Shown here: positions 10,276-61,663 of the stretch, in pieces
How positions within the stretch are numbered: position 1 is the first letter of the stretch
How the letters are laid out: the number at the start of each line of letters is the position of its first letter
Source of the DNA: a virus
Taxonomy: Duplodnaviria > Caudoviricetes
Reading direction: 5' to 3' (one strand)
Virus record (IMG/VR): IMGVR_UViG_3300028833_000058
Length of the DNA: 64,000 bases
Program-made: the position numbers and the translations under genes
Notes under the pieces: generated by a model
Told to the model about the DNA's origin: nothing
Databases searched by the model: none
Seen by the model: the letters and a program-made list of their open reading frames with translations, nothing else

Positions 10276-11925
10276 ATGTCAACAAGTGCATATTTTGATA
10301 AAGAAGCTCAAGATGCTTTAGTAACAGGCTTAAATTTAGTTAGTAAGGCTGTTGGAAGTACATTAGGTCCTGCTGGTAGTACTGTTGTTTTTCAAGAAAA
10401 AGATAAACCAGTGGTTATCACAAAGGATGGTGTAACAGTAGCTAAACAGATTAACCCTAAAGATGAGAAAGTCAGATTAGGTGCTGAACTTGCTATCAAC
10501 ATTAGTAAGAAGCAACTTGATTCTGTTGGTGATGGTACAACTACTGCTTGTGTTTTAGGTAATGCTATTGTAAATACAGGTGTTCGTCAGATTGAATTAA
10601 GTGATTCTAAAGTAAATCGTACTGCTGTTCGTCATGGTATTGAAAAAGCAAGAGATTATGTTATTAATAAACTTGTTTCTTTAGGTAAAGGTATCGAAAC
10701 AGATGAAGATTTAGTTAACATTGCAACTGTTTCAGCGAATGGTGACGAATCACTTGGTAGAATTGTTGCAGAAGCTTATAATAGAGTTGGTAAAGACGGC
10801 ATTGTTCAAGTTGAAGAAACAAAAGACCGTACGACTTATTTACAATTCAAAGAGGGTATGACTTTTGCCAAAGGTTGGACTTCACAATTCTTTGTAAACA
10901 ATCATGAAGACCAAACAGTTGAATATGATAATCCAAAGATTTTGTTATGTGAATCTAAGATTTCTAACTTTGCAACTCTTGTAGATGTTATTCAAGGTAT
11001 CAGTAAAACTGGTGCTCCTGTTGTTGTTATTGCTGAAAGTTTTGATTCTAGCGTAACACAAGGTCTTGCTATGAATATCATTCGTAGTGGTGGTCAACTT
11101 AAGGTTGCTTGTGTAGAAGCTCCTGGCTATGGTGACCGTAGATTAGATTTATTACGTGATATGGCTGTTTATTTAGGTGGTTGTGTAGCAGATGACCCTC
11201 TTGGTAAAAAATTAGAAACTATTTCACCTATTGACTTTGGTTCTTGTGAAAAAATTATCATTAAAAAAGATGAAACAATTATCCGTGGTGGCATGGGTAA
11301 TCCAGAACAAATTAAAGAACGTATCAATAGTATTCAAGGTGTTATAAGCAATCTTAAAGAAAATAATACATTTGAAAAAGAACAACTTGGTAAACGTATT
11401 GCTGCTTTGACTACTGGTGTTGCCGTAATTAAAGTAGGTGGTAGCTCTGAAGAAGAAATTAAAGAACTTAAAGACAGATTAGACGATGCTCAATGGGCTG
11501 TTAAGTCTGCTCTTCAAAGTGGCTATTTACCTGGCGGTGGAACAACTCTGCTTCACATTTCTGAAACAGTACAAGAAAATGTTAAAACAGACAACGCTGA
11601 TGAAAAATTGGGTGTTGAAATTGTAGCTAGGGCGTTAAAGGCTCCTTTCCGTACAATTCTTGAAAATGCTGGAATTGACCCAGAATCTACAATGAAGAAA
11701 GTTTTGGAACAGAAAGATATTAATGTTGGCTATGATGCACGTAACCTTGAAGTTAAAAACATGGTTGAAGCTGGCATTATTGACCCTGTTAAGGTTGTTA
11801 CAGGTAGTATTTACGCTGCTACTTCAATTGCTTCTGTTGTTTTAACTTCAGATGTTATCATCACAACAGATAAAGAAGAGAACACTGGGTTATCTTTAAA
11901 TATGATGCCTGGTGGGATGATGTAA
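10276..11925 (+). CDS. groEL: chaperonin GroEL
   Basis: Motifs TLGP, ITKDGVTVAK, GDGTTT, APGYGDRR, GIIDPVKV and a C-terminal MMPGGMM tail. Confidence 0.97.
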   Translation: MSTSAYFDKEAQDALVTGLNLVSKAVGSTLGPAGSTVVFQEKDKPVVITKDGVTVAKQINPKDEKVRLGAELAINISKKQLDSVGDGTTTACVLGNAIVNTGVRQIELSDSKVNRTAVRHGIEKARDYVINKLVSLGKGIETDEDLVNIATVSANGDESLGRIVAEAYNRVGKDGIVQVEETKDRTTYLQFKEGMTFAKGWTSQFFVNNHEDQTVEYDNPKILLCESKISNFATLVDVIQGISKTGAPVVVIAESFDSSVTQGLAMNIIRSGGQLKVACVEAPGYGDRRLDLLRDMAVYLGGCVADDPLGKKLETISPIDFGSCEKIIIKKDETIIRGGMGNPEQIKERINSIQGVISNLKENNTFEKEQLGKRIAALTTGVAVIKVGGSSEEEIKELKDRLDDAQWAVKSALQSGYLPGGGTTLLHISETVQENVKTDNADEKLGVEIVARALKAPFRTILENAGIDPESTMKKVLEQKDINVGYDARNLEVKNMVEAGIIDPVKVVTGSIYAATSIASVVLTSDVIITTDKEENTGLSLNMMPGGMM

Positions 11926-45659: not shown

Positions 45660-46370
45660 ATGTTATTAGATATCATAAAAGCGATTTTAAGCCTTTTCAG
45701 TAAGCAAGAAGAACATAAACCACAAGTTGTTGCTGAAAAACCAAAATTGCTTACCTACGAGCAAATTTTGGCCATTAACGATAATAAAAATCCAGATATG
45801 TGTAAATATTACATCGATGCTTTAAATAAAGTACTTCCAGAGTATAAAATTGATACAAAATTAAGACTTTCACATTTTTTAGCTCAGATTCTTCATGAAA
45901 GTGGTAACTTTAGGTATAAGTCAGAGAATTTAAACTACTCTGCCACTGCTTTGCGTTCTGTCTTTCCAAAATATTTTAAGACAAACGCTATTGCAAATGA
46001 ATATGCAAGAAAACCAGAGAAGATTGGTAACAGGGTTTATGCCAATCGTATGGGAAACGGTAATGAAACTAGTGGAGATGGGTTCAAATATCGTGGAAGA
46101 GGTCTAATTCAGCTCACAGGTAAGTCAAATTATAGGGCCTGTGGAGAAGATTTAGGTATAGATTTATTAAAATTACCAGATTTGATTATATCAGACCCAG
46201 AAATTTGTGTAAAAACAGCCTGTTGGTTTTGGAATAGGAATAATTTGAATAGTTTAGCTGACCAAGACGATATTAAAACCATAACAAAACGTATAAATGG
46301 TGGTTTTAATGGTCTAGAAGATAGACAAAGGTTGTTGGCACGAGCTAAACAAGTTTTATTTACTTCCTAA
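45660..46370 (+). CDS. glycoside hydrolase family 19 endolysin
   Basis: Motifs FLAQILHESG, ENLNYS, YANRMGNG, YRGRGLIQLTG..NY and TKRINGG.NGLEDR. Confidence 0.93.
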   Translation: MLLDIIKAILSLFSKQEEHKPQVVAEKPKLLTYEQILAINDNKNPDMCKYYIDALNKVLPEYKIDTKLRLSHFLAQILHESGNFRYKSENLNYSATALRSVFPKYFKTNAIANEYARKPEKIGNRVYANRMGNGNETSGDGFKYRGRGLIQLTGKSNYRACGEDLGIDLLKLPDLIISDPEICVKTACWFWNRNNLNSLADQDDIKTITKRINGGFNGLEDRQRLLARAKQVLFTS

Positions 46371-47381
46371 CCAGTTATAAAACATTTTTAATGCACAATT
46401 TTTAGATTTTGACTTTATATGCATCTTACTAGCCATACAAGGTAATCTACAAAATGGATAATATTGACAATTTGAACATTTTAAGTTGTTTATAGCTATT
46501 TCAAATTGTCTTTTTGTGCAATTGTCGTTATCATAACATTCTGTTAAACTCATTCCGTATTCATTTAACATACTTAATGTACCAGACCTTAATAAACACG
46601 AGAATACAAGACGATTATTGATAAATGAGCAACTGTTTTTACATATACAATATCTTCCATTCGGATTATTGTAACTTTCAACTATGTGTTTAACTTCTTT
46701 TATGTTTTCAAATTTGTTTTCATAACAAAATTTATAAAATTCAAATAGGTCTTCTTCTGAAGGAGCATATTTTTCCCAATTTAAGTTATAAATGTAATAT
46801 TCTGGGTATATTTCAAACTTTCTTAAACGTTCTAATTGATTTCCTCTAATATATTCGTGTATACAATCTTTTGTTAAGGTTATTGATATCACTCTTGGAT
46901 TAAAAATATCAATGTTTTTCCACCAAATTTCTTCTGTGTTACCATGAAATCTAGATATTGGGTCGTAAGATGTCGCTATATAACAATCTTTTTCTAATAA
47001 GTCATGTACTCTAGTTACTTTATTGAACACTAAATTTGTTGAAAAGCAAAATTCACATTTATAATTATTGCTGTTACACCAGTCTCTTAAAATGGTTACC
47101 ATTTGTTTATAGCAGGTGAAATATTCATCACCTAAAGAATCCATAAACAACTCCCCACCCCAAAATCTAAAGACAAGATTTTTAATCTCTTTTCTCTTTT
47201 GTTTGATTGTGTCTAATTCATGTATCAAAACGAATGTAGAATCGATAATTTCTTCACACGTTTTCAAATCAGTATGTTTTTCAAAACAGAACTTACAGTG
47301 TAAATTACATCTATCAAAGAGAATTACACATATTTCTAAAGTGTCGTTGTGTTTATAAAAATTATCAAATAGATTATTCAT
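46356..47381 (-). CDS. radical SAM protein 6 (SPASM-like tail)
   Basis: CNLHCKFC, WGGE, C-terminal CSNCQYYPFCRLPC. Confidence 0.9.
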   Translation of the reverse strand: MNNLFDNFYKHNDTLEICVILFDRCNLHCKFCFEKHTDLKTCEEIIDSTFVLIHELDTIKQKRKEIKNLVFRFWGGELFMDSLGDEYFTCYKQMVTILRDWCNSNNYKCEFCFSTNLVFNKVTRVHDLLEKDCYIATSYDPISRFHGNTEEIWWKNIDIFNPRVISITLTKDCIHEYIRGNQLERLRKFEIYPEYYIYNLNWEKYAPSEEDLFEFYKFCYENKFENIKEVKHIVESYNNPNGRYCICKNSCSFINNRLVFSCLLRSGTLSMLNEYGMSLTECYDNDNCTKRQFEIAINNLKCSNCQYYPFCRLPCMASKMHIKSKSKNCALKMFYNWLGSK

Positions 47382-48537
47382 CGTTTACTATCTCAAACAG
47401 CATTTTATTAATACATTCTTTTGGTTTCCAAATGAACTGATGATTTTGATAACACCCACGTAAATTTCTTTCTGAACACCACGGTTTATATTTACATAAG
47501 TTACATTTATATCTCTTATTGAAAAATGTTTCAACATGCTCATGATGTTTTAGACAGGTAAATTCACCATTCAATTTGTTTTTTATTATGTTTTCTTTTT
47601 TAATGTCATCGTGTTCTGGCCAAAAGATGTAAGGAATTAGTTCACACGGTGATTCTTCTCTGCCAAACATCGGTATAAATTCAACTGTTTCACAATACGA
47701 TTTGAAATCATCTTTGTTTATTTTAATATCAATATTGTGTGACATGAAGACATTTAACTCAATTCCATGCCTATTCTTAATTTCATTATAGAAGTTACGA
47801 TAATCGTCAAAGGTAGGCACTTCTGACATACTATTAGAATTATAAGGTTGATATTCGTTAAAAACAAGTGACAATCGTTTGTTTTTATCCATTTCTAATA
47901 ATTTATCAAAGAGAATGACACTATTGTTATTTTTGTCTTCTATGTATTTGTTCATAGAAGATTTAGTCAAAATAGTCTCTATTAACAAATCATCTTCTTT
48001 TACCAATACCTTTTCTAAATTGTTTTGCCAAATTTTTAACGATAAATCATTTTTAAATCTTCCGTGTACATCATAAGAAGTTGCTATGTTGACTAACTTG
48101 TTTTTTTGTGATATGTAATCAAATAAGTTAAATAATCTATCTAATCTTTCTTTTTCTAATATTAAGTTTGAAAACAACGTATTGTGGAGTTTTACTGGCT
48201 TATTAGTGGTTATTTCATAGAGTGAATCAAACAATTTGTAAAAATAATCAAAATATTCTTTCGGCAACACTCCTATTTCACCACCGATAAAATAATGCTT
48301 TAACAATGTTCCGTTAGGTAATCTGTCTATATTTTCATTTAGCCATTGTATTTCATACTCTCCGATTTTTTTAAACTCTTCTAACGACATTAGTTTGTTA
48401 TCGTGTATTGATTTTAAACAACAAAAATCACAATTGTTATTACACTGAGCAAAAGTAAAAGCATAAGGGAGTAATCCTAAAACTTTAGTCTTTTGTACCA
48501 TCTCTATTAAATCGTTAGTACGTTTATCACTTAACAT
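47374..48537 (-). CDS. radical SAM protein 5
   Basis: CNNNCDFC, IGGE, C-terminal CNLCKYKPWC...GC...C. Confidence 0.88.
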   Translation of the reverse strand: MLSDKRTNDLIEMVQKTKVLGLLPYAFTFAQCNNNCDFCCLKSIHDNKLMSLEEFKKIGEYEIQWLNENIDRLPNGTLLKHYFIGGEIGVLPKEYFDYFYKLFDSLYEITTNKPVKLHNTLFSNLILEKERLDRLFNLFDYISQKNKLVNIATSYDVHGRFKNDLSLKIWQNNLEKVLVKEDDLLIETILTKSSMNKYIEDKNNNSVILFDKLLEMDKNKRLSLVFNEYQPYNSNSMSEVPTFDDYRNFYNEIKNRHGIELNVFMSHNIDIKINKDDFKSYCETVEFIPMFGREESPCELIPYIFWPEHDDIKKENIIKNKLNGEFTCLKHHEHVETFFNKRYKCNLCKYKPWCSERNLRGCYQNHQFIWKPKECINKMLFEIVNDE

Positions 48538-49523
48538 TGTAAATTTTCCTTTATTTTGTCAATTAACATTTTTAACCCTGGACACCCTGTTTTATCGAAA
48601 CTTAACTGACAACATTCGCCTCTACATATGTTGTAATAGGAACAAGTTAAACATCTCTCGTTCAATTTTCTTTCTTGTGATATCAATTTCTTATGTAATG
48701 ATTCATTGTACCCATTGTTGTCAACAATGTGAATATTTGATATATTAGGGCAAGTTGCTATAGTACCATCAGTATTAACTGTTATGACATTCTCCATACA
48801 TCTTCTTTCTCTGCAACCAATTGGGTCATTTCCTTTTATAATGTTTTCTAGTTCTTCAAAAAGTTGTATTTTGATGTCATGGTGTTGTAAATTGTAAATA
48901 TATAGTTCTGTTAACCATTTATCTATATCTACGTTATCTGGTTTTATTTTTACAACAGCAGCTCTACCAGTTTCTGTTATTCTTTCAAAATTTATAATTT
49001 TTATTCCTAATTCTTTGAAATAGTTCATTAATTTACTTGGTTTATGTGACAAAGTAAATTTATTCAATGTAACAATTACTTCAACATCGAATCCTTTTTG
49101 TAACAAAGATTTTACATTATTTTCCCAAATGTTACGTTGATTAACTGTTGTGAACCTATAGTCATCAACATCCCAACTTGTTTTTAGAAATTTTTTGTCA
49201 AAAAGTGAAAAAAGTTCTATTAGTTTATCAGTGAGTTTGTATGTTAAGTTTGTTGTAGCACTCCATTTTATAGTTGGGTAACTCTTAATCAATTCGATAT
49301 AATTTTGTATTGTATTGTCTTCTGCTTGAAAAAAAGGTTCTCCACCATGGAATACACACTCTATTTGTTTAAATTTGTTTACATGTGAGTCTAGGATGTT
49401 TCTGATTACATTTACATCAAGTCTTTTTTTATCAGAAAATATACCAGAGTTCATATAGCATCCTTTGCAATTTAAATTACATTGGTTTGTCATACATAGA
49501 TAGATTTTCTTATACTCATTCAT
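48531..49523 (-). CDS. radical SAM/SPASM protein 4
   Basis: CNLNCKGC, HGGEP, C....C...ITVNTDG.IATCP, CLTCSYYNICRGECC. Likely start 49523 (track gives 49547). Confidence 0.92.
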   Translation of the reverse strand: MNEYKKIYLCMTNQCNLNCKGCYMNSGIFSDKKRLDVNVIRNILDSHVNKFKQIECVFHGGEPFFQAEDNTIQNYIELIKSYPTIKWSATTNLTYKLTDKLIELFSLFDKKFLKTSWDVDDYRFTTVNQRNIWENNVKSLLQKGFDVEVIVTLNKFTLSHKPSKLMNYFKELGIKIINFERITETGRAAVVKIKPDNVDIDKWLTELYIYNLQHHDIKIQLFEELENIIKGNDPIGCRERRCMENVITVNTDGTIATCPNISNIHIVDNNGYNESLHKKLISQERKLNERCLTCSYYNICRGECCQLSFDKTGCPGLKMLIDKIKENLQC

Positions 49524-49527
49524 GTTA

Positions 49528-50457
49528 TCACCATCTTTCGTTTTCAATATCTTCAGCTACTTTTAAAAGGTTTTTACAGCCATCACATTTTATTTTAGTT
49601 AAGTGTTCTGTCCAACAATTTCCATAATATTTACAATTTCCACATCTCTTTATATACTCCATACGTTCTTTTTTAGCGTCAGCTATATAACTTTCTACGT
49701 CATCATACCACTTAAAATACTCTAAATTATCGTTAGTGTAATAAACTGCACCAAACTTTCCATCTGGTGAAATTCTTATACACTGGTCATTCGTAGCTAT
49801 AGGATATGTTCGATTTAAACAAGATTTTAAACCGTTTTCTAAACACAATTTGTAGTCAAAATCCTTTTCGTGAGACGTGTAATAAGTTAAAATATTTATA
49901 AGAAAGTTTTCATATTGGTCTTGTGTGATTTTATATACATCGCCAGTGTTTATACTCGGATAGTATTTTACGAAAGACACCCATTGTATATTCAAACCGT
50001 TATATCCATCTAAAGCATCTTTTGGGGTTTTTCTTATGAGAGAAGGACTAACTATACTCAAAACTGTTAAATTTTCTAAATTTACACCTTTCTTCAGGAT
50101 AGACTTTATATAATCATAATCTGGTCTTTCTTCGTTTAAAGATGTTGAAAAGAAAGTATTCTTGAATATATGTAACTTTGAGATGTCATAGAAGTTCGTA
50201 GTTAAATAATTCTTACATTTGTATTGAATTAATATATCGTTTAACTCTTTTAAGTATGTATTCGGTAAGAGTGTTATCTCTCCACCATACAGATTAAATT
50301 TTTCAATTTCAAAATATTGTGAAATTTGTTTAAGTCTTTGTTTTAATGTATTTAAGTCCAATATTGATTCACCATGGTGATTGTTTAAATAACAAAACTC
50401 ACAATTGTTATTACAAAGGTACGTTGGAAAAATTGAAACGATTATTTTATTTTTCAT
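49528..50457 (-). CDS. radical SAM protein 3
   Basis: CNNNCEFC, YGGE, CIRISPDG, CGNCKYYGNC...CDGC. Likely start 50457. Confidence 0.9.
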   Translation of the reverse strand: MKNKIIVSIFPTYLCNNNCEFCYLNNHHGESILDLNTLKQRLKQISQYFEIEKFNLYGGEITLLPNTYLKELNDILIQYKCKNYLTTNFYDISKLHIFKNTFFSTSLNEERPDYDYIKSILKKGVNLENLTVLSIVSPSLIRKTPKDALDGYNGLNIQWVSFVKYYPSINTGDVYKITQDQYENFLINILTYYTSHEKDFDYKLCLENGLKSCLNRTYPIATNDQCIRISPDGKFGAVYYTNDNLEYFKWYDDVESYIADAKKERMEYIKRCGNCKYYGNCWTEHLTKIKCDGCKNLLKVAEDIENERW

Positions 50458-51268
50458 TCCTGACCCTTTCATAAAATTTTGGAAAGAAAGAACATCTTGT
50501 ATGTAATTTACAGGGAATACAATTTTTATTATACATACATGTAAGACATCTTTTTAAAACATGCGGCTTGTAGTTTTCTGCAAATACACATTTTTCTTGT
50601 ATCGTTCCGTTTGGTAAAATTGTTTTTGTATTGCAATTAAAATTCCAATTTAATATCTGTTCTTTTATTAAATTTTTTATCATCAAATTTTGAATTGTCC
50701 ATTCTTCATCTAATTTACATAACCAATCGTCTACTGTGTTTTGAAAATCGTCATTTAAGTCATTGTCAATGAGACATTCGAAAAGTATACTGTCAATGTT
50801 TTCAAAACTTTTAATGATTTCAATGAGATGTTCTGGATTCATTTTAACAACATCTTTGTCTAACGTTATCAATAGCAATGGTGATTTTTTTAAAAGTTTT
50901 AAGTTATTTAGCCAGATTTTAAACAATTCATTTGACGAAAATCTATTTGGATTCCAACTTGTTGCTACACTCAAGTCATGTTTGTTTATTTCGTCTATAA
51001 TTTGTTTATCTGTAAAGATAAGATTTGTTGTAATAGAGGTTATTACATCTGTATCTAAGATTTCTATAAAAAGTTTCTTATTAAGAGTAGGTTCCCCACC
51101 ATGAAGAATAAAATTTGCTTCTGGATATTTATGTTTTTGGGACAACATTGTTTTGAAAAAAACTTCTTTGTTAAAACTATACGGTTTATTTTTCACTGTA
51201 CAGTGCGAACAGTTTAGATTACATTTCCAACTAGGTACGATGTAAAATGTTAATTCAGATGAGTCCAT
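50447..51268 (-). CDS. radical SAM protein 2
   Basis: CNLNCSHC, HGGEP, TILPNG...C, CLTCMYNKNCIPC. Likely start 51268. Confidence 0.9.
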   Translation of the reverse strand: MDSSELTFYIVPSWKCNLNCSHCTVKNKPYSFNKEVFFKTMLSQKHKYPEANFILHGGEPTLNKKLFIEILDTDVITSITTNLIFTDKQIIDEINKHDLSVATSWNPNRFSSNELFKIWLNNLKLLKKSPLLLITLDKDVVKMNPEHLIEIIKSFENIDSILFECLIDNDLNDDFQNTVDDWLCKLDEEWTIQNLMIKNLIKEQILNWNFNCNTKTILPNGTIQEKCVFAENYKPHVLKRCLTCMYNKNCIPCKLHTRCSFFPKFYERVRNEK

Positions 51269-52205
51269 ATTTTGATAAATCATTGTAGTTTTCTTTCATC
51301 CATTTACATTGCTCATTCTTATATTGTTTAGAATAAAATACGTTTAGTGAGCAAGAATTACACAAATGGAACATTTTACATGTTAAACATTTTTCAAAAA
51401 GAACATCTTTTTGTATATTTATTTCATCTTTTGAACTTATAATATCTTCACAATGGTGTTCTATTAATTCTCCAGAGTTATTTACATAAACAACTTTATT
51501 GTATAAGCAATGTTTATACGACTTCGGATATGGACATTTTCCGTTATAAAATGCGTCTAAGCTTTCTAATTGGTCACCATATCCATTTTTTATAATATCT
51601 AAATATAGTTTGATTAACTTATATCTAGGATAGAAAGATTTACTTAACCCAAGTGGCATTTGTTGATTTAATTTAAATGTAGTACCTAGTTTTTTTGCCA
51701 ATTCACCTGCTTTTAGTACTTCGGTTTCATTGTTTTCGTTGACAATGTAAATAAACATTAGTTTTTCATTGTACATTTCATAAAATTTGTTAAAAATTTT
51801 TACAAATTCGTCTTCTGTGAACACTGAATTTTCTCTTCTGTCTTCACCATATTGAAAACTAGTGACTACCCCAACATGAGGGTTAGTAAAAAGATATTCA
51901 AATTTTTCTGGGTCTTTATACCATAGCGTTAAATTAGACGTTAATGACAAATTGTAATCAGTTCCATTCTGTTCTAAACAATTTATCAAGTCTAAAAAAT
52001 ACGTCTTTGGATTAACCAATGGTTCACCACCAGTTATAATTACATCAGATGGTTTATATTCTTTTAAAAACTGTTTTAATTTTTCAGGAACGTATTCGTG
52101 TAAAGGTATATTTAAAAGTTTAGCACTACAAAATGTACAATTAAAGTTACAAACACTAGTTGGTTTGATAATAAGTGTTTTTTTACCAAATTCTTTTTGA
52201 TTCAT
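51255..52205 (-). CDS. radical SAM protein 1
   Basis: IIKPTSVCNFNCTFC, TGGEP, CLTCKMFHLCNSC. Confidence 0.92.
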   Translation of the reverse strand: MNQKEFGKKTLIIKPTSVCNFNCTFCSAKLLNIPLHEYVPEKLKQFLKEYKPSDVIITGGEPLVNPKTYFLDLINCLEQNGTDYNLSLTSNLTLWYKDPEKFEYLFTNPHVGVVTSFQYGEDRRENSVFTEDEFVKIFNKFYEMYNEKLMFIYIVNENNETEVLKAGELAKKLGTTFKLNQQMPLGLSKSFYPRYKLIKLYLDIIKNGYGDQLESLDAFYNGKCPYPKSYKHCLYNKVVYVNNSGELIEHHCEDIISSKDEINIQKDVLFEKCLTCKMFHLCNSCSLNVFYSKQYKNEQCKWMKENYNDLSKYGLI

Positions 52206-52216
52206 GCCAGTAACCT

Positions 52217-52888
52217 TTATACTAATCCAAAAATTCTCACAGAAGGTAAAGATAACATAGCCTTATAAAATCCGAATTCTTTGGATATATTCTTTATAAT
52301 GTATTCGTATAAAACATGCTCATAGTCATTTGTGTAATATAGCCTAATCGCATCACATTCGATTGGATATTTTATTAGTATGTGTTTAATCGTTTCATAA
52401 AAAACAGGTTTTTCCTTTACAATCTTCCCCTTATAGGAATCGTATTCTATTAATTTATTATCTTTATTTTTTTCTAACAAAAATGTTACTTCATCTAAAG
52501 ATATTAAAAATTGTATTATGTCTTTTATTAATTCTTGATTACGATTTCTAAAAATCTTTATTTCATCTTGTGATAGTATTGATTCTCTAAAGATGATTTC
52601 ATTTGATACAAGATTCAATATACATTGATTAAATTGGTCTATACCCTTATCTAACATCAAATTTGCTTTTAAATATGTTAATAACCATAACTCTTTTGTT
52701 TCGTAGTCACAATTTTCAAAATCAAAAGAACAATTTAACTCTAAGTTTCTTATGTAGATGATTGCTGATAAAATCTGGTTATCCACATCTTCAAATTTTA
52801 TGTCATTGGGATTGATTACATACATGTTAGAAGAGTAATCTGTATCTTCAATGTATTCTTCATTCAGTGGTAATCCAGTGTGTTGCAT
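52217..52888 (-). CDS. hypothetical accessory protein of the radical SAM operon
   Basis: 223 aa, separated by 11-12 nt from both neighbours; no CxxxCxxC motif. Confidence 0.65.
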   Translation of the reverse strand: MQHTGLPLNEEYIEDTDYSSNMYVINPNDIKFEDVDNQILSAIIYIRNLELNCSFDFENCDYETKELWLLTYLKANLMLDKGIDQFNQCILNLVSNEIIFRESILSQDEIKIFRNRNQELIKDIIQFLISLDEVTFLLEKNKDNKLIEYDSYKGKIVKEKPVFYETIKHILIKYPIECDAIRLYYTNDYEHVLYEYIIKNISKEFGFYKAMLSLPSVRIFGLV

Positions 52889-52900
52889 GTTTTTCCTTTC

Positions 52901-53710
52901 TTATCTTCTGCTTCTATGGTTACTGTGGCAATTACTATGACAGTTAGAATGACACCAATATTTAACAAAAGTTACACAATTACTACCGTTTGGAGTTGAA
53001 GAACTACCATTCCACATCCATGAAGCATTGTTTACATCATCACAGTCTCTTTTAAAGTTGTCTAACTGTTGTTCTACATTTGCTATCGCTTTTATCAATT
53101 TGTTAATAGACATTGATGATATCTTCGTTGTGTTTAACACATACGTTGTATTATTGTTCCAATTTACAGAGCCTAACGGGTCTGATGAATATCTAGTAAC
53201 ATCTGTGTCTTTATTGTTAACTTTTGGTGGTAACTGTTCTGCGGTGCTAGTATATTCGTTTACAGATTGTTCGTTTACACGTGTGATATCAAAAGATTTT
53301 TTAAAATACGCCCATTTTACTTGCTCAATTGGTTTATTTAAATCAGATGGTAAAACTTGTTCTCCAGTTCCAGAAACGCTTTTTATATAAAGTTTTTTAC
53401 ATCTACCAAGTTCTACAAATACTTTTTTTATAAGTTCGTACGTAGTGTTAGCTTCAGGTATTTTGTTAGTATTGATAGTTGTGTCATTGTTTATAACATT
53501 GGCTATATCGGACAACAGTTCATTTCTTGAACATAAATATTTTTTATCAATGGCATCTGGAACAGAAGTAGTTGAATCCCAATAGTTAGTTTTAGGAAGT
53601 ATGTCATTGCATAAACTGTATAATCTGTCTTTAAAAGATGGTACAATTATGTCGTCTTTAGAAGTTATAACAGTGTTACCAGAAAGCTTTTTAGTAGTTA
53701 TTTGTACCAT
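52901..53710 (-). CDS. putative radical SAM substrate with a C-terminal (CHSN)3 repeat
   Basis: Ends ...KYWCHSNCHSNCHSNHRSRR*; first gene of the operon. Confidence 0.75.
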   Translation of the reverse strand: MVQITTKKLSGNTVITSKDDIIVPSFKDRLYSLCNDILPKTNYWDSTTSVPDAIDKKYLCSRNELLSDIANVINNDTTINTNKIPEANTTYELIKKVFVELGRCKKLYIKSVSGTGEQVLPSDLNKPIEQVKWAYFKKSFDITRVNEQSVNEYTSTAEQLPPKVNNKDTDVTRYSSDPLGSVNWNNNTTYVLNTTKISSMSINKLIKAIANVEQQLDNFKRDCDDVNNASWMWNGSSSTPNGSNCVTFVKYWCHSNCHSNCHSNHRSRR

Positions 53711-53742
53711 TTTATCCTCATTGTTTGTATTAATCTGTTATA

Positions 53743-53749
53743 TAGAACT
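53743..53749 (-). promoter_or_regulatory. AGTTCTA putative late-promoter motif
   Basis: TAGAACT on the + strand, about 33 nt upstream of the ATG at 53710. Confidence 0.6.
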
Positions 53750-53773
53750 TAACTGAATAACTAGTTTGATTAG

Positions 53774-53802
53774 AGTATAACTCAAAGTTATGAAATGTAA
53801 AG
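53774..53802 (-). promoter_or_regulatory. sigma70-like promoter candidate CTTTACA-N16-TATACT
   Basis: Read on the minus strand upstream of the rSAM operon. Confidence 0.4.
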
Positions 53803-53880
53803 TTAAAAAAACACAAAATTGTCTTTAATATTTTTAAAAATTTTATATTCTAATATATAGGAACATTAGAGGAGATTTGA

Positions 53881-54360
53881 TTGGAGATGAGTGGAAGTAA
53901 ATACGGGTCAAAAATAGATATAAACGAGATATTTCCTGCAGAATGGTACGAAAATGTAACCAATGCTGCTAATTACGTTATAAAAAATATTGATATACCA
54001 GATGAAAGGTTAGAAGATGTAATATTACATGTTATAGATTACAATATTAACAAACAAGTTGAATCAAAACTTCTTGATAAAGCTGCTGATGATTTACCTA
54101 ATTATTTTTCTTTTGTAGATGTATCAAGCGCAAGACTTTTTAATGATTTTAAGGAAATTTTAGACATTTGTAGCGTATGTCCCTCGTTTAAAGAACATGT
54201 CATTTATTTTCAAATTTATGACATGGAATACGATAAAAAAAGACTTAATTTTTGGAAGAAAATAGTCAAAAACGATTACCCTAACTTATCTATAACCACA
54301 CGAGAGTTGAAGGCCCAAGATTGTATAAAGTTAGTTATTCGTAAAATTTGTAAAGAATGA
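53881..54360 (+). CDS. hypothetical protein
   Basis: 159 aa with RBS GAGGAG before a TTG start; divergent from the rSAM operon. Confidence 0.55.
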   Translation: MEMSGSKYGSKIDINEIFPAEWYENVTNAANYVIKNIDIPDERLEDVILHVIDYNINKQVESKLLDKAADDLPNYFSFVDVSSARLFNDFKEILDICSVCPSFKEHVIYFQIYDMEYDKKRLNFWKKIVKNDYPNLSITTRELKAQDCIKLVIRKICKE

Positions 54361-54555
54361 TATAGGAATCTCAATGAACTGTTGACTTACACACTCTGGT
54401 GTCGATACAGTGCGGATAAGACCACCAGGAACTCTTAAATAAGTGACTTCACAACCAACTTTATTTGTGTCACAAACTACGTATTCAAAGCGTTTTAAAG
54501 CTTTTAGTTTTAGCTCATCTACCTCTTTGAAATTAGGATTTTTCTTTTTGAACAT
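54331..54555 (-). CDS. small hypothetical protein
   Basis: 74 aa ORF directly downstream of 54560..54778. Confidence 0.5.
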   Translation of the reverse strand: MFKKKNPNFKEVDELKLKALKRFEYVVCDTNKVGCEVTYLRVPGGLIRTVSTPECVSQQFIEIPISFFTNFTNN

Positions 54556-54559
54556 GCTA

Positions 54560-54778
54560 CTACTCGAACTGACGTTTTAAATAACTAAGAACGCTTGGAA
54601 ATTCTTTAACGTCTTCATCTGATAGCTGTAACATCTTTTTGTCAAATATCAACTTATCACCATCTATGGTGTAATTCTTCTTAATAAGGCTCTTAACTTC
54701 ACTCACAGATAAGTAAAGTTGATGCTTCGTAGAAGAAATCATCTTTATACCAGTTTCGTCTAAATTGATTATTCTCAT
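54560..54778 (-). CDS. small hypothetical protein
   Basis: 72 aa with RBS GGAG and an upstream promoter candidate. Confidence 0.55.
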   Translation of the reverse strand: MRIINLDETGIKMISSTKHQLYLSVSEVKSLIKKNYTIDGDKLIFDKKMLQLSDEDVKEFPSVLSYLKRQFE

Positions 54779-59365: not shown

Positions 59366-61663
59366 TTATTTGTTATCAAAATCTATACGAATAACACATT
59401 CTACTAAACGTTTCGTTCCAGGGTCTCTATCTATGATTTTACCTATACATCTACCGTTTTTAACAGTCGATGCTGTACCAGGTTTTATTCTTGATAAATA
59501 TATTTTATCACCAAAGTAGTTTATAGAGTTTCCATCCATTAAAACAGGAACTCTACCGACCAAAGCTACAGGTAAATAGTTCTCATTTTTCTTTTCACCT
59601 AACTGAAGACCTGGTTTACTTGAAATAACACCATCAGCTTCAAATTGAGCCTTAGAAATTTCTTTAGTACCTGCACCAAATGTAATCAAAGTACCAGGTT
59701 CGTAAAACTTATCTGCTTCATAATATTCAGCTAAGTCGGCCCATTCAGCACGATAAGCTTTTCCCCAGAAATCAACTTTACCATTATCCCAATGTGTCGA
59801 TTGCTTTTCAGTTGTTATATCAACATTTTTACCGACAACCATTTGTTTCCATTGAATGTAAGTGTTTACATAGATAGGATTATTCCAACTATAACCAGCT
59901 TGGCTAGAATCAGTAGGTAGAGTTTTCTGAATATAATTGTTTTGAAGAGTTTGTGGTGTTACAGAATATTTACTAGCAGCTTTTCTATTTATTACTACAT
60001 CTTTGACTTGAGCGTCTGTTGCATATCTAGTTGTACCATAATTAGTTTCACTTGCTTCATTACGTAAGTCTAAAGCTAACTGCATTGAATTTTGACCAGT
60101 AACCCAACCTAAGAAACAATCTGTACGTCTTAAAGTAGGTTTACCTTTATCATCACCTCTGCCACAATATACAGGTTTGTTTAACCATTGTGAATCAAAG
60201 TTCCATACATATCTATTTGTTTTTGCAGAACTAACTTTAAATCTTGCCCCATTACCATTTCTAGGCATTTGAGAATTTTTGTCATAGTATACTGAATCAC
60301 AAATATATGAATCATTACCTAAATCAATAGCACCAGAAGTTGGTCCAAGCAAAAAGATACCATCTTCTTCAACACCTGTTGTAATTTCACCGTCATTGGT
60401 AACAATTTTTACTTGTACCTTCAATATGAGGTTTTCTTTTACAACAATATCTAAAATATCACCAGATTGGTATCCGCTACCACCGTTGTATACTTTTACT
60501 TTGTATGTATAGCTATCTTGGAAGTTACTAACTTCACCAGAATATACAATGTTATCACCTACACGAAGACCAATAGGCATTTGCTCATTTAACGTTAAAT
60601 CTTCATCTGTTTCGTAAATACCTTCTGCTCTTTCGTACTTTTGTGTTTCATCACTCCAATATACAAACATGTAGTCTTGCACATCATTAGCGAACTTATC
60701 TTGACCTACATATATATAGTTAGTTGTTGGTTGAAAATACGCCCAGTCACCTGTGTAACCAGTGTAATCACCTGTTCCAGTATTTAACGGTCTAGGAACT
60801 GCTAAAGCTGGCATATTAGAACCAAAAAGGTTATCCACTAAGTAACAGTTATGCGGCATGCGTGAAGAATCTGTTGGGTTGTCTAATAACGTTTCGTTTG
60901 GAACTTCTGGTAAGTCCATTTCGTAATCTTCTATAACGTCTAAATTAGAAACAAAACCTAAGTTACTTAAAACTGTGTTCATATAAAACTTAAGTCTGTT
61001 ACCAATTCTTGTTTCACCTACAGCGTATTTTGTGACAACAGAAGGTAATGTAGCTATAGCAAACAATATGTCATGAACACCGTCTGCATCTTTTACATAT
61101 AATCCAATTGTACCAATGTCCCATTCTTCTTCACCAGTATCTGAAATTGCATCGATAGGTAAATCTAAAAGATATTGTAATCCACCAGTAGAATTATTGT
61201 ATCTCCATTTCAAAATACGTTTAAGGTCTTCTACGTTATGTTTAGCATTTAGTGTTCCTACAGTGTAAACAATGTTACCACTTGCTAAAAGATTTTCATC
61301 TGTCCATTCTATAAGAGGTATACCTGGATTGTTAACGGTTTGGTCGATTATTTTTATACCACTTATGGTGAGTTTATATCCACCTATGACTGTGTCAGTT
61401 AACGATTTTAAGCCTTCTGAAGTAATAACAAGTCTATAAGTCTCATCTGGTGCACAAATTACCCAGTTTACACCGTTATATTGCTCTAATTCCCAACCAT
61501 CTGTATCATTACCAATGGCACAATACATACCTGCTTGCAATTTATTTGGAAAATTTATAAAATATTGGTCACGACTTATAGGGTTACCTGCACCAGTACG
61601 TCTAGCGAACCAAAATTCGCTGTCTATCTCATAGACTTTCAATTGCTCTTTTGTAACTAACAT
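59366..61663 (-). CDS. tail/baseplate-attached fibre protein with a C-terminal intramolecular-chaperone (peptidase G2-like) domain
   Basis: N-terminal fibre-attachment pattern (LVITSEG..., IGTIGLY..., LFAIA); C-terminal WADLAEYY...GVISSKPG...PVALVGRVPV. Confidence 0.72.
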   Translation of the reverse strand: MLVTKEQLKVYEIDSEFWFARRTGAGNPISRDQYFINFPNKLQAGMYCAIGNDTDGWELEQYNGVNWVICAPDETYRLVITSEGLKSLTDTVIGGYKLTISGIKIIDQTVNNPGIPLIEWTDENLLASGNIVYTVGTLNAKHNVEDLKRILKWRYNNSTGGLQYLLDLPIDAISDTGEEEWDIGTIGLYVKDADGVHDILFAIATLPSVVTKYAVGETRIGNRLKFYMNTVLSNLGFVSNLDVIEDYEMDLPEVPNETLLDNPTDSSRMPHNCYLVDNLFGSNMPALAVPRPLNTGTGDYTGYTGDWAYFQPTTNYIYVGQDKFANDVQDYMFVYWSDETQKYERAEGIYETDEDLTLNEQMPIGLRVGDNIVYSGEVSNFQDSYTYKVKVYNGGSGYQSGDILDIVVKENLILKVQVKIVTNDGEITTGVEEDGIFLLGPTSGAIDLGNDSYICDSVYYDKNSQMPRNGNGARFKVSSAKTNRYVWNFDSQWLNKPVYCGRGDDKGKPTLRRTDCFLGWVTGQNSMQLALDLRNEASETNYGTTRYATDAQVKDVVINRKAASKYSVTPQTLQNNYIQKTLPTDSSQAGYSWNNPIYVNTYIQWKQMVVGKNVDITTEKQSTHWDNGKVDFWGKAYRAEWADLAEYYEADKFYEPGTLITFGAGTKEISKAQFEADGVISSKPGLQLGEKKNENYLPVALVGRVPVLMDGNSINYFGDKIYLSRIKPGTASTVKNGRCIGKIIDRDPGTKRLVECVIRIDFDNK

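Follow-up and report, generated by a model that had tools for sequence, protein, structure and literature searches.

A conserved C-terminal Cys-His repeat tail as the probable target of a phage-encoded radical-SAM cassette

The 64,000-nucleotide stretch of viral DNA analysed here, IMG/VR record IMGVR_UViG_3300028833_000058 (referred to in its full length as the window), encodes on its minus strand a protein of 269 amino acids (aa), P0001 (52901..53710), which ends in the tail Y-W-(C-H-S-N)x3-H-R-S-R-R. Downstream of it, on the same strand and separated by gaps or overlaps of a few bases only, follow seven genes, one for a 223-aa partner protein and six open reading frames (ORFs) of 278-387 aa for the radical S-adenosylmethionine (rSAM) enzymes r1 to r6. 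Most likely the tail is a substrate of these rSAM enzymes and is chemically modified, and we consider it probable that the phage devotes a protein-maturation cassette to this modification site. A three-part core, consisting of a tail protein, a partner of about 240 aa and an rSAM/SPASM enzyme of the r4 type, recurs together with further rSAM/SPASM enzymes across hundreds of loci. The cassette in the window is a variant of this widespread phage system, of which no description was found in the literature searched.

Results

The tail is conserved at the protein level

The tail comprises Y251 to R269 and the TAA stop codon (52901..52960, minus strand) and is proposed as the modification site on the basis of its sequence and of the family alignment. 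Read as the reverse complement, positions 52901-52957 correspond to W252 to R269 and the stop of the ORF at 52901-53710. Its codons are TGG, then TGT CAT TCT AAC / TGT CAT AGT AAT / TGC CAC AGT AAC for the three units, then CAT AGA AGC AGA AGA TAA. In pairwise comparison the 12-nucleotide units differ at 3-4 of 12 bases, and all of these differences are synonymous, the switch between the serine codons TCT and AGT amounting to two base changes. Since the units differ by synonymous changes only, the C-H-S-N repeat is kept at the protein level and is not the product of recent slippage. A previous reading of the window from its sequence only had pointed to the differing codons and had taken the tail for a selected peptide motif rather than recent DNA slippage; both points hold, the latter also in view of the conservation of the tail in the family.

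Close relatives of P0001 were sought by a word-based search and by an exhaustive profile search of 1.84 billion representatives, the latter of which yielded about 20 proteins only. In an alignment of 19 sequences with a mean column identity of 33%, residues Y251, C253, H254, N256, C257, R266, R268 and R269 do not vary at all, W252 and H262 hardly do, and position 255, the middle residue (X2) of the first H-x-N, is free to vary. The number of repeat units ranges from two to four. Three members (P0005, P0010 and P0014) have only two tail Cys, the third Cys being lost and the H-x-x unit kept, and at the later His positions of the tail W is found in one case and Y in two. No other stretch of the family is as well conserved as the tail, which is always found at the extreme C-terminus and is kept despite diverged bodies in P0021-P0023, whose bodies without the tail are distant homologues of the P0001 body (E 4e-10 to 8e-22). 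This conservation, like the number of pattern matches given below, far exceeds what chance would produce. The alignment of homologues thus gave the picture that the sequence-only reading had expected, a conserved tail on a protein that otherwise varies. Two of the tail-bearing paralogues, P0023 (304 aa, 38-952) and P0022 (235 aa, 959-1666), are encoded in tandem on one short contig (L004). An IMG/VR match to the pattern W-C-H-x-N-C-H (L008) was discarded as a chance match on the antisense strand of a Pro/Thr linker.

It had also been remarked that H-S-N fits the aromatic-X-X pattern of three-residue cyclophanes, and the family agrees with this. H254-x-N256 is invariant around a variable X2, the later units read H/Y/W-x-N/S/D, and where, as rarely happens, a later tail His is replaced in the close family or in the wider one described below, an aromatic residue mostly takes its place (Y in four cases, W in one and N in one). 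The motifs W-M-W-N and Y-W-C just upstream, noted at the same time, are both present, but they are specific to the lineage of the window and are not general sites: the residue before the first Cys is V, I or L in the wider family as opposed to Y-W here.

As judged from sequence, homologues and model, P0001 has a folded alpha/beta body from which a beta-strand (residues 245-252) leads into the tail. The AlphaFold model (pLDDT 65, pTM 0.69) shows the body folded and the tail disordered. P0001 has no match in Pfam, PHROG or NCBIfam (the last searched at E up to 0.01), and its body resembles no known fold: searches with the model returned nothing useful, the best hits being at E 1.0 in the PDB (Foldseek), a 173-aa phage protein in BFVD (E 5e-3) and helical designs in VIA wide (Z 5.0). 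Neither P0001 (tblastn) nor the operon DNA (blastn) retrieved a match from GenBank phages; of the queries used there, only the r4 protein did.

The tail ends many proteins without detected similarity in their bodies and occurs with rSAM genes

When IMG/VR was scanned with the DNA pattern C-H-x-x (x3)-R-x-R-R-stop, at least 120 viral contigs matched. The matches listed yielded at least 140 ORFs that end in the tail; their products are 61-364 aa long (median 184), and many of them form tandem pairs. As the third residue, which the pattern does not force, about 90% of the units have Ser and about 10% Asn. With a pattern that leaves His free in units 2 and 3, this residue is absent from only 3 of 145 tails (Y, Y and N). 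An rSAM/SPASM ORF is found in 102 of the 117 listed loci with a tail ORF and, where there is room on both sides, lies within 3 kb on the same strand in 46 of 53. We refer to the loci of this wider family as CHxS loci. Tandem pairs of tail proteins of about 125 aa are common among those in IMG/VR.

The r4 enzyme links the window to cultured phages. A tblastn search with it matched, over the full length and at about 30% identity, proteins of cultured jumbo phages that infect Agrobacterium, Ralstonia, Burkholderia, Sinorhizobium and Pseudomonas, and in 70 CHxS loci among the matches listed the identity is 26-31%, again over the full length. The tail itself is carried by the cultured phages Atu_ph07, RSF1, pPa_SNUABM_DT01 and Phosso. 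In the four cultured lineages inspected the gene order is cupin, r4-type rSAM, (C-H-x-S)x3-R-x-R-R protein, a protein of ~260-356 aa and further rSAM/SPASM genes, with the cupin directly before the r4-type enzyme and the latter directly before the tail-bearing gene (Atu_ph07 gp171/gp170, RSF1 ORF070/071, DT01 and Phosso). The gene after the tail gene encodes a partner resembling Atu_ph07 gp169 in three of the four lineages, and the 356-aa ORF072 of RSF1 represents a separate family of 371-aa proteins. The window combines the same elements, namely C-H-x-x units followed by R-x-R-R and a stop codon, with an r4-type enzyme and a gp169-like partner adjacent. The one PHROG family concerned, phrog_35144, covers proteins of the RSF1 ORF071 type only and is listed with function unknown. 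In RSF1 (L015, 65821-82828) the cassette also lies beside two dihydrofolate-reductase genes, an HNH endonuclease gene and a 2-oxoglutarate (2OG)-Fe(II) oxygenase gene.

The tail is found outside recognised phages too. Data with one genome per species contain 37 genuine tail ORFs, about 27 of them in Bdellovibrionota on contigs of up to 2.8 Mb and in the same rSAM-tail-partner module; these loci may be prophage or bacterial genes. Ten further pattern matches in these data were rejected as chance, no ORF ending in the tail. Two contigs stand apart (L171/L184). One, of 249 kb and binned as 'Bacilli bacterium', has six or seven rSAM-type ORFs and then a tail protein and may be a mis-binned jumbo phage, and the other, binned as Methanobacteriota, has a tail ORF and three rSAM/SPASM ORFs.

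With their tails removed, the CHxS proteins are not detected by a profile of the P0001-family body. Because the same tail ends proteins of 61-364 aa with no detected similarity in their bodies, it looks, as far as sequence comparison can tell, like a portable C-terminal module on full-size proteins and not like the core of a RiPP (a peptide made on the ribosome and modified after translation) behind a leader. Of the earlier proposal that the tail is a modified core, what stands is that it is very likely to be an rSAM substrate; its placement as a core behind a leader gives way to that of a portable module.

The operon is maintained in the lineage of the window

In the relatives closest to the window, with which it forms what we call the gut lineage, the tail gene is followed by the partner gene and then by six rSAM genes in L001 (68% identity to P0001) and L011 (about 33%), and by seven in L002 (35%) and in L005/L006 (a 231-kb IMG/VR phage, 33%). 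On the short and divergent contig L003 a single rSAM gene is seen, located before the tail gene; it is an r4 orthologue (28-31% identity, E 1e-43 to 3e-46). L178, a longer relative of L003 in a Bdellovibrionaceae metagenome-assembled genome, has at least four. Co-occurrence with rSAM genes therefore holds in every informative context (the window, L001, L002, L003/L178, L005/L006 and L011), as it does in the 46 of 53 roomy loci among the IMG/VR matches listed. The sequence-only reading would have been given up had the tail been unconserved or had homologues commonly occurred without rSAM genes, and neither is the case.

An apparent tracking of repeat number with rSAM number (four units with seven rSAMs, three with six) was ruled out by L011, whose two-Cys tail occurs with six rSAMs. 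Two small ORFs upstream (54331-54555 and 54560-54778) were also rejected as precursors, as they are not rich in Cys or aromatic residues and a plus-strand gene intervenes before the operon. A relative from the gut metagenome of another study is 94% identical across the whole operon (46356-53900), with 428 substitutions and only three indels (52215, 52890 and 53737). That these indels are all intergenic fits purifying selection on all eight ORFs.

The rSAM enzymes

All six rSAM proteins contain CX3CX2C within their first 40 residues and a C-terminal C-x2-C-x5-C cluster. The Pfam gathering threshold for PF04055 (29.5 bits) is passed by r1 to r4 (55.2, 31.3, 34.4 and 31.7 bits), r5 stays below it (21.1), and r6 has no Pfam match but matches phrog_1802 at E 1.4e-18, a family matched by five of the six. 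With the motif in all and the Pfam threshold passed by four, they belong to the radical SAM superfamily, and from their sequences all six look active. The Pfam SPASM-domain model matched none of the cassette enzymes.

The core enzyme is r4 (338 aa; 48531..49547, minus strand), an rSAM/SPASM protein with the full seven-Cys SPASM motif (C250-x10-G-x4-C266, C299-x2-C-x5-C-x3-C312 and C322), all of it invariant in 5 orthologues. Orthologues are found in at least 70 CHxS loci and in the cultured jumbo phages. The best full-length matches of its profile are the triceptide synthase ChlB (E 3.6e-10) and the anaerobic sulfatase-maturating enzyme anSME (E 8e-10).

The remaining enzymes, all encoded on the minus strand, contain C-x2-C-x5-C plus further Cys, which is compatible with a full SPASM or a twitch domain. 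In r1 (316 aa; 51255..52205) CX3CX2C lies at residue 19 and CxxCx5C near the C-terminus; it is 51-60% identical across gut lineages and occurs in at least 28 CHxS loci. The motif lies at residue 20 in r3 (314 aa; 49528..50472; C-terminal Cys cluster), whose orthogroup shows 58-61% identity and is found in at least 22 CHxS loci, and at residue 25 in r6 (341 aa with 23 Cys; 46356..47381; C-terminal Cys cluster; phrog_1802), with relatives in at least 47. Few or no full-length counterparts outside the gut lineage were found for r2 and r5. The former (278 aa; 50447..51283; CX3CX2C at residue 21, C-terminal Cys cluster) is 51-52% identical in the gut lineage and gives partial matches only elsewhere, and the latter (387 aa; 47374..48537; CX3CX2C at residue 32) is the most variable, with 22-28% identity to its counterparts and duplication in L002 and L005. 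Between lineages r1 to r4 are one-to-one orthologues with 50-61% identity but are only about 20% identical to each other, and are therefore old, functionally distinct paralogues. Partial NCBIfam matches of the enzymes are all to rSAM/SPASM proteins that modify peptides or proteins (anSME, PapB, DynA, AmcB, YhhB, DarE and HxsB/C).

The partner protein

The partner (223 aa; 52217..52888, minus strand) is helical and of no known family. About 98 other loci among the matches listed encode a homologue of it right behind their tail gene, and Atu_ph07 gp169 is one of these. The partner profile of the wider family matches the gut-lineage partners at about E 1e-9, and an iterated search from gp169 recovers them at E 2e-18 to 3.5e-26. 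An identical partner protein is encoded on a 246 kb contig. NCBIfam holds no match to the 223-aa protein, and searches with its model gave a best Z of 4.6 in VIA wide and scores all under 0.9 in the Atlas search. A relationship to the rSAM paralogues found no support (hhalign probability 0.4%). Prediction of a complex between P0001 and the partner lends weak support to their interaction, with a score of 0.48 (runs 0.48, 0.73 and 0.00; best control 0.00), agreement between the runs in at least 1% of contacts and a partner pLDDT of at least 49. Of 80 solved complexes 58 come up to the mark used, as do 2 of 110 mismatched pairs; with scores of 0.60 or under, only 7 of the 80 do so, together with both mismatches.

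Neighbouring genes and virion context

Among the matches listed, the cassette has cupin neighbours in 61 IMG/VR loci, 2OG-Fe(II) oxygenases of two families in 26 and 18, and the 371-aa protein of unknown function in 44; at least one oxygen-dependent enzyme is present in 75 of 115 CHxS loci. Fibre proteins with a Peptidase_G2 intramolecular-chaperone domain are found in 63 listed IMG/VR loci and DUF4815 structural proteins nearby in 25. The window has a tail-fibre-like protein (765 aa; 59366..61663, minus strand) of the same fibre cluster that recurs by the cassette in at least 63 IMG/VR loci. In the gut lineage, for which the whole 64-kb window and four 20-kb relatives were covered, neither the cupin nor the 371-aa protein nor the two oxygenase families had a homologue. 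This lineage is further marked by six or seven rSAMs, by H-x-N in place of H-x-S, by Y-W before the first Cys and by two to four units. We infer that it represents an anaerobic, oxygenase-free, all-rSAM version of the pathway, which fits anaerobic gut hosts.

The neighbourhood of fibre genes points to a role in the virion, as does the virion proteome of Atu_ph07: the paper on it names a cluster of virion proteins 'CDS 170-215' (PMC6102473), which by its numbering, as checked, begins at the tail-bearing gp170 and gives a hint only.

Source phage and transcription

The window derives from a large phage with a G+C content of 32% that encodes GroEL, portal, prohead protease, SbcC and endolysin proteins, the full-length GroEL-type chaperonin lying at 10276-11925 (phrog_5725, E 1e-126). 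The probable source of the window is a sheep gut metagenome, and the phage is from the animal gut. A sheep-gut metatranscriptome library contains five short contigs identical to the window (52901-53650, 48139-48289 and 49173-49346) which cover only parts of the operon; three of the five fall within the gene of the tail protein, one of these three stopping precisely at its stop codon. They are a weak hint that the operon is transcribed, as DNA carry-over is possible. A promoter-like sequence, TTTACA-16-TATACT (53774-53801, minus strand), lies 64 nucleotides upstream of the start codon of the tail protein; promoter- and terminator-like sites are no commoner than in shuffled AT-rich sequence.

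Discussion

How might such a cassette act on the tail? We suggest that the partner and r4 would recognise the amphipathic beta-strand and the tail, and that the rSAM enzymes would crosslink every C-H-x-N unit. The likeliest chemistry would be that of three-residue cyclophanes, with a bond from a carbon of the aromatic His to the third residue at its beta-carbon; alternatively or additionally, a thioether could be formed between the Cys and the same third residue. The product would remain a full-length protein carrying a rigid Cys/His knob and the cationic R-x-R-R end, and its likeliest destination would be the virion, near the fibres. A more far-reaching version of this proposal is that the rSAM batteries of phages and predatory Bdellovibrionota weld the Cys/His tail of a protein in the virion or associated with the fibres into a polycyclic knob that possibly binds metal, that the gut form is strictly anaerobic with the extra enzymes r2 and r5 replacing the cupin and the 2OG oxygenases, and that each of the six enzymes makes a distinct modification; taken as a whole, we regard this version as possible but rather doubtful.

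Several observations weigh against modification of the tail. The rSAM enzymes could act on another protein, for instance a fibre, and none of them reaches the cut-off of any curated NCBIfam peptide-maturase model. An RRE/PqqD domain was not found in any protein of the cassette. The modelled tail is disordered, with a pLDDT under 50. The argument from aromatic replacements is a modest one, as His-to-Tyr is the commonest neutral replacement of His. As to a place in the virion, RSF1 ORF071 is a hypothetical protein in RefSeq and not a structural virion protein. Finally, a metal site would account just as well for the near-total conservation of both Cys and His.

The last point leads to the view that the tail is an unmodified Cys/His site for Zn, Fe or Fe-S, perhaps between the subunits of an oligomeric virion protein, and that the rSAM enzymes act elsewhere or are mere neighbours. 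C253, H254 and C257 do not vary and H262 hardly does, 142 of 145 tails of the wider family have the His of units 2 and 3 even where the search pattern leaves it free, and the spacing i, i+1, i+4, i+5 would bring the Cys and His residues to the same face of a helix. Yet some members manage with only two tail Cys (P0005, P0010 and P0014) and one has Trp, several Tyr, in place of a His. The third residue (S or N) is conserved to about the degree expected of a ligand, which it usually is not. Nor does a metal site explain the tight and ancient linkage to 1-8 rSAM/SPASM genes and a dedicated partner, and we hold it to be rather unlikely. Some less weight still is given to a function like that of the bacterial effector HxsA, in which a His-rich basic tail would bind DNA and block entry of the genome of a competing phage (superinfection exclusion), or would counter an HXS-type host defence, without being structural. 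HxsA has basic HxS repeats, is matured by rSAM enzymes with a small partner, binds DNA and blocks entry (PMC13128918), and the wider phage family indeed carries H-x-S units followed by R-G-R-R. What makes such a function improbable here is that P0001 contains no peptidoglycan-binding domain and its N-terminus does not resemble a signal peptide (judged by eye only), that the enzymes are closer to ChlB and anSME, and that the cassette lies among fibre genes and is present in predatory bacteria as well.

The least probable of the alternatives, in our estimate, is a classical RiPP whose 250-aa body serves as leader or carrier and whose tail is cut off as a crosslinked cationic peptide, released on lysis as an antimicrobial or signal. 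It would account for a core-like motif C-terminal to a long N-terminal region, for the tandem precursor-like paralogues of some loci (L004 and many IMG/VR loci) and for enzymes of the peptide-maturase rSAM/SPASM type. But the operon and its conserved neighbours gave no match to a protease or exporter family, the bodies, of 61-364 aa, adjoin fibre genes, and the invariant R-x-R-R follows the repeats instead of marking a junction between leader and core. The very long (~250 aa) leader or carrier that the sequence-only reading had envisaged lacks support on the same grounds, the body being folded and conserved (pTM 0.69), the operon having no Pfam or PHROG match to a protease or exporter, and the same tail being found on proteins of such different length without detected similarity in their bodies.

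If the tail is modified as we propose, this would be post-translational chemistry new for phage proteins, and rSAM maturation of full-size proteins would reach the phage side, beyond the bacterial defence effector HxsA. In the more far-reaching version the system would constitute a new class of enzymatic virion maturation. Its genes would be carried by hundreds of phages, sampled in gut, marine and soil settings, as well as by predatory bacteria, and it is directly testable because cultured phages carry it (RSF1, Atu_ph07, pPa_SNUABM_DT01 and Phosso). The oxygenase-free gut version with six rSAMs offers a natural comparison of an aerobic and an anaerobic route, maybe to the same product, and the conserved tail together with enzyme and partner could serve as a compact tag for enzymatic crosslinking of peptides.

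Comparison with known systems

Among the characterised enzymes to which r4 is related, anSME (TIGR03942; PDB 4k36-4k39) is likewise a compact rSAM/SPASM protein without RRE, and its target is a Cys or Ser in a folded protein of full size. It differs from the cassette, in which several paralogous enzymes occur with a partner protein. The anSME model is the best NCBIfam match of r4 over its full length, at 60.2 bits as compared to a cut-off of 349, and the C/S-x-P/A-x-R motif is absent from the tail. Thioether-forming rSAM/SPASM enzymes (PapB, acting on the C-x3-D repeats of ranthipeptides, CteB and QhpD) share with the tail system the regularly spaced Cys in short repeats, but the possible acceptor is located at +3 (S or N) here and at +4 (D or E) there. 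With PapB (NF047865) r4 scores 58 bits over its full length as opposed to a cut-off of 340, and the residue at +4 from each Cys of the tail is the next Cys. QhpD crosslinks the gamma subunit of quinohemoprotein amine dehydrogenase, a protein subunit and not a released peptide.

Triceptides contain three-residue cyclophanes made by the rSAM/SPASM enzymes known as 3-CyFEs (ChlB, HaaB and HtkB), which accept His, as in the HAA and HTK motifs (PMC11499958; PDB 9gm3). The likeness to the tail lies in the variable X2 and the fixed third residue and in the alignment of the r4 profile with ChlB over its full length (E 3.6e-10). Different from the triceptides, the putative substrate of a putative crosslink here is a 269-aa protein without a short leader and with an invariant Cys in each unit, and the NCBIfam models of cyclophane maturases, which have cut-offs of 425-450 bits, are matched at 43-47.

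Of the systems described so far, the bacterial HXS antiphage system comes closest. Its effector HxsA has five basic HxS repeats, one of which shows a change of +8 Da, and is matured by the rSAM enzymes HxsB and HxsC with HxsD; it binds DNA and keeps phage genomes from entering (PMC13128918). Both systems combine a full-size protein that bears tandem basic units of the H-x-S type with more than one rSAM enzyme and a small non-enzymatic partner. In the phage system, however, an invariant Cys precedes each His, the third residue is Asn in the lineage of the window, the repeats stand at the extreme C-terminus and are followed by R-x-R-R and a stop, six or seven phage-encoded rSAMs lie next to fibre genes, the SPASM-type enzymes are closer to ChlB and anSME, and P0001 has neither a peptidoglycan-binding domain nor a signal peptide apparent by eye. 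The HxsA model (of the set TIGR03976-03979) matches neither P0001 at E up to 0.01 nor any of ten tail proteins of the wider family at E up to 1, and the units of the window read H-S-N, H-x-S being found in the wider family. The enzymes score 23.8 and 20.8 bits with HxsC (cut-off 267.9) and 20.1 bits with HxsB (cut-off 370), and match in the N-terminal region only; as to HxsD, the partner has no NCBIfam match.

Within the phage system, finally, the lineage of the window differs from the (C-H-x-S)x3-R-G-R-R family in its H-x-N units, in Y-W before the first Cys, in its two to four units, in a body without detectable sequence similarity, in its six or seven rSAMs and in its lack of the cupin, the 2OG oxygenases and the 371-aa protein. 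It shares with this family the architecture of the tail, the r4-type enzyme, the partner family and the neighbourhood of fibre genes.

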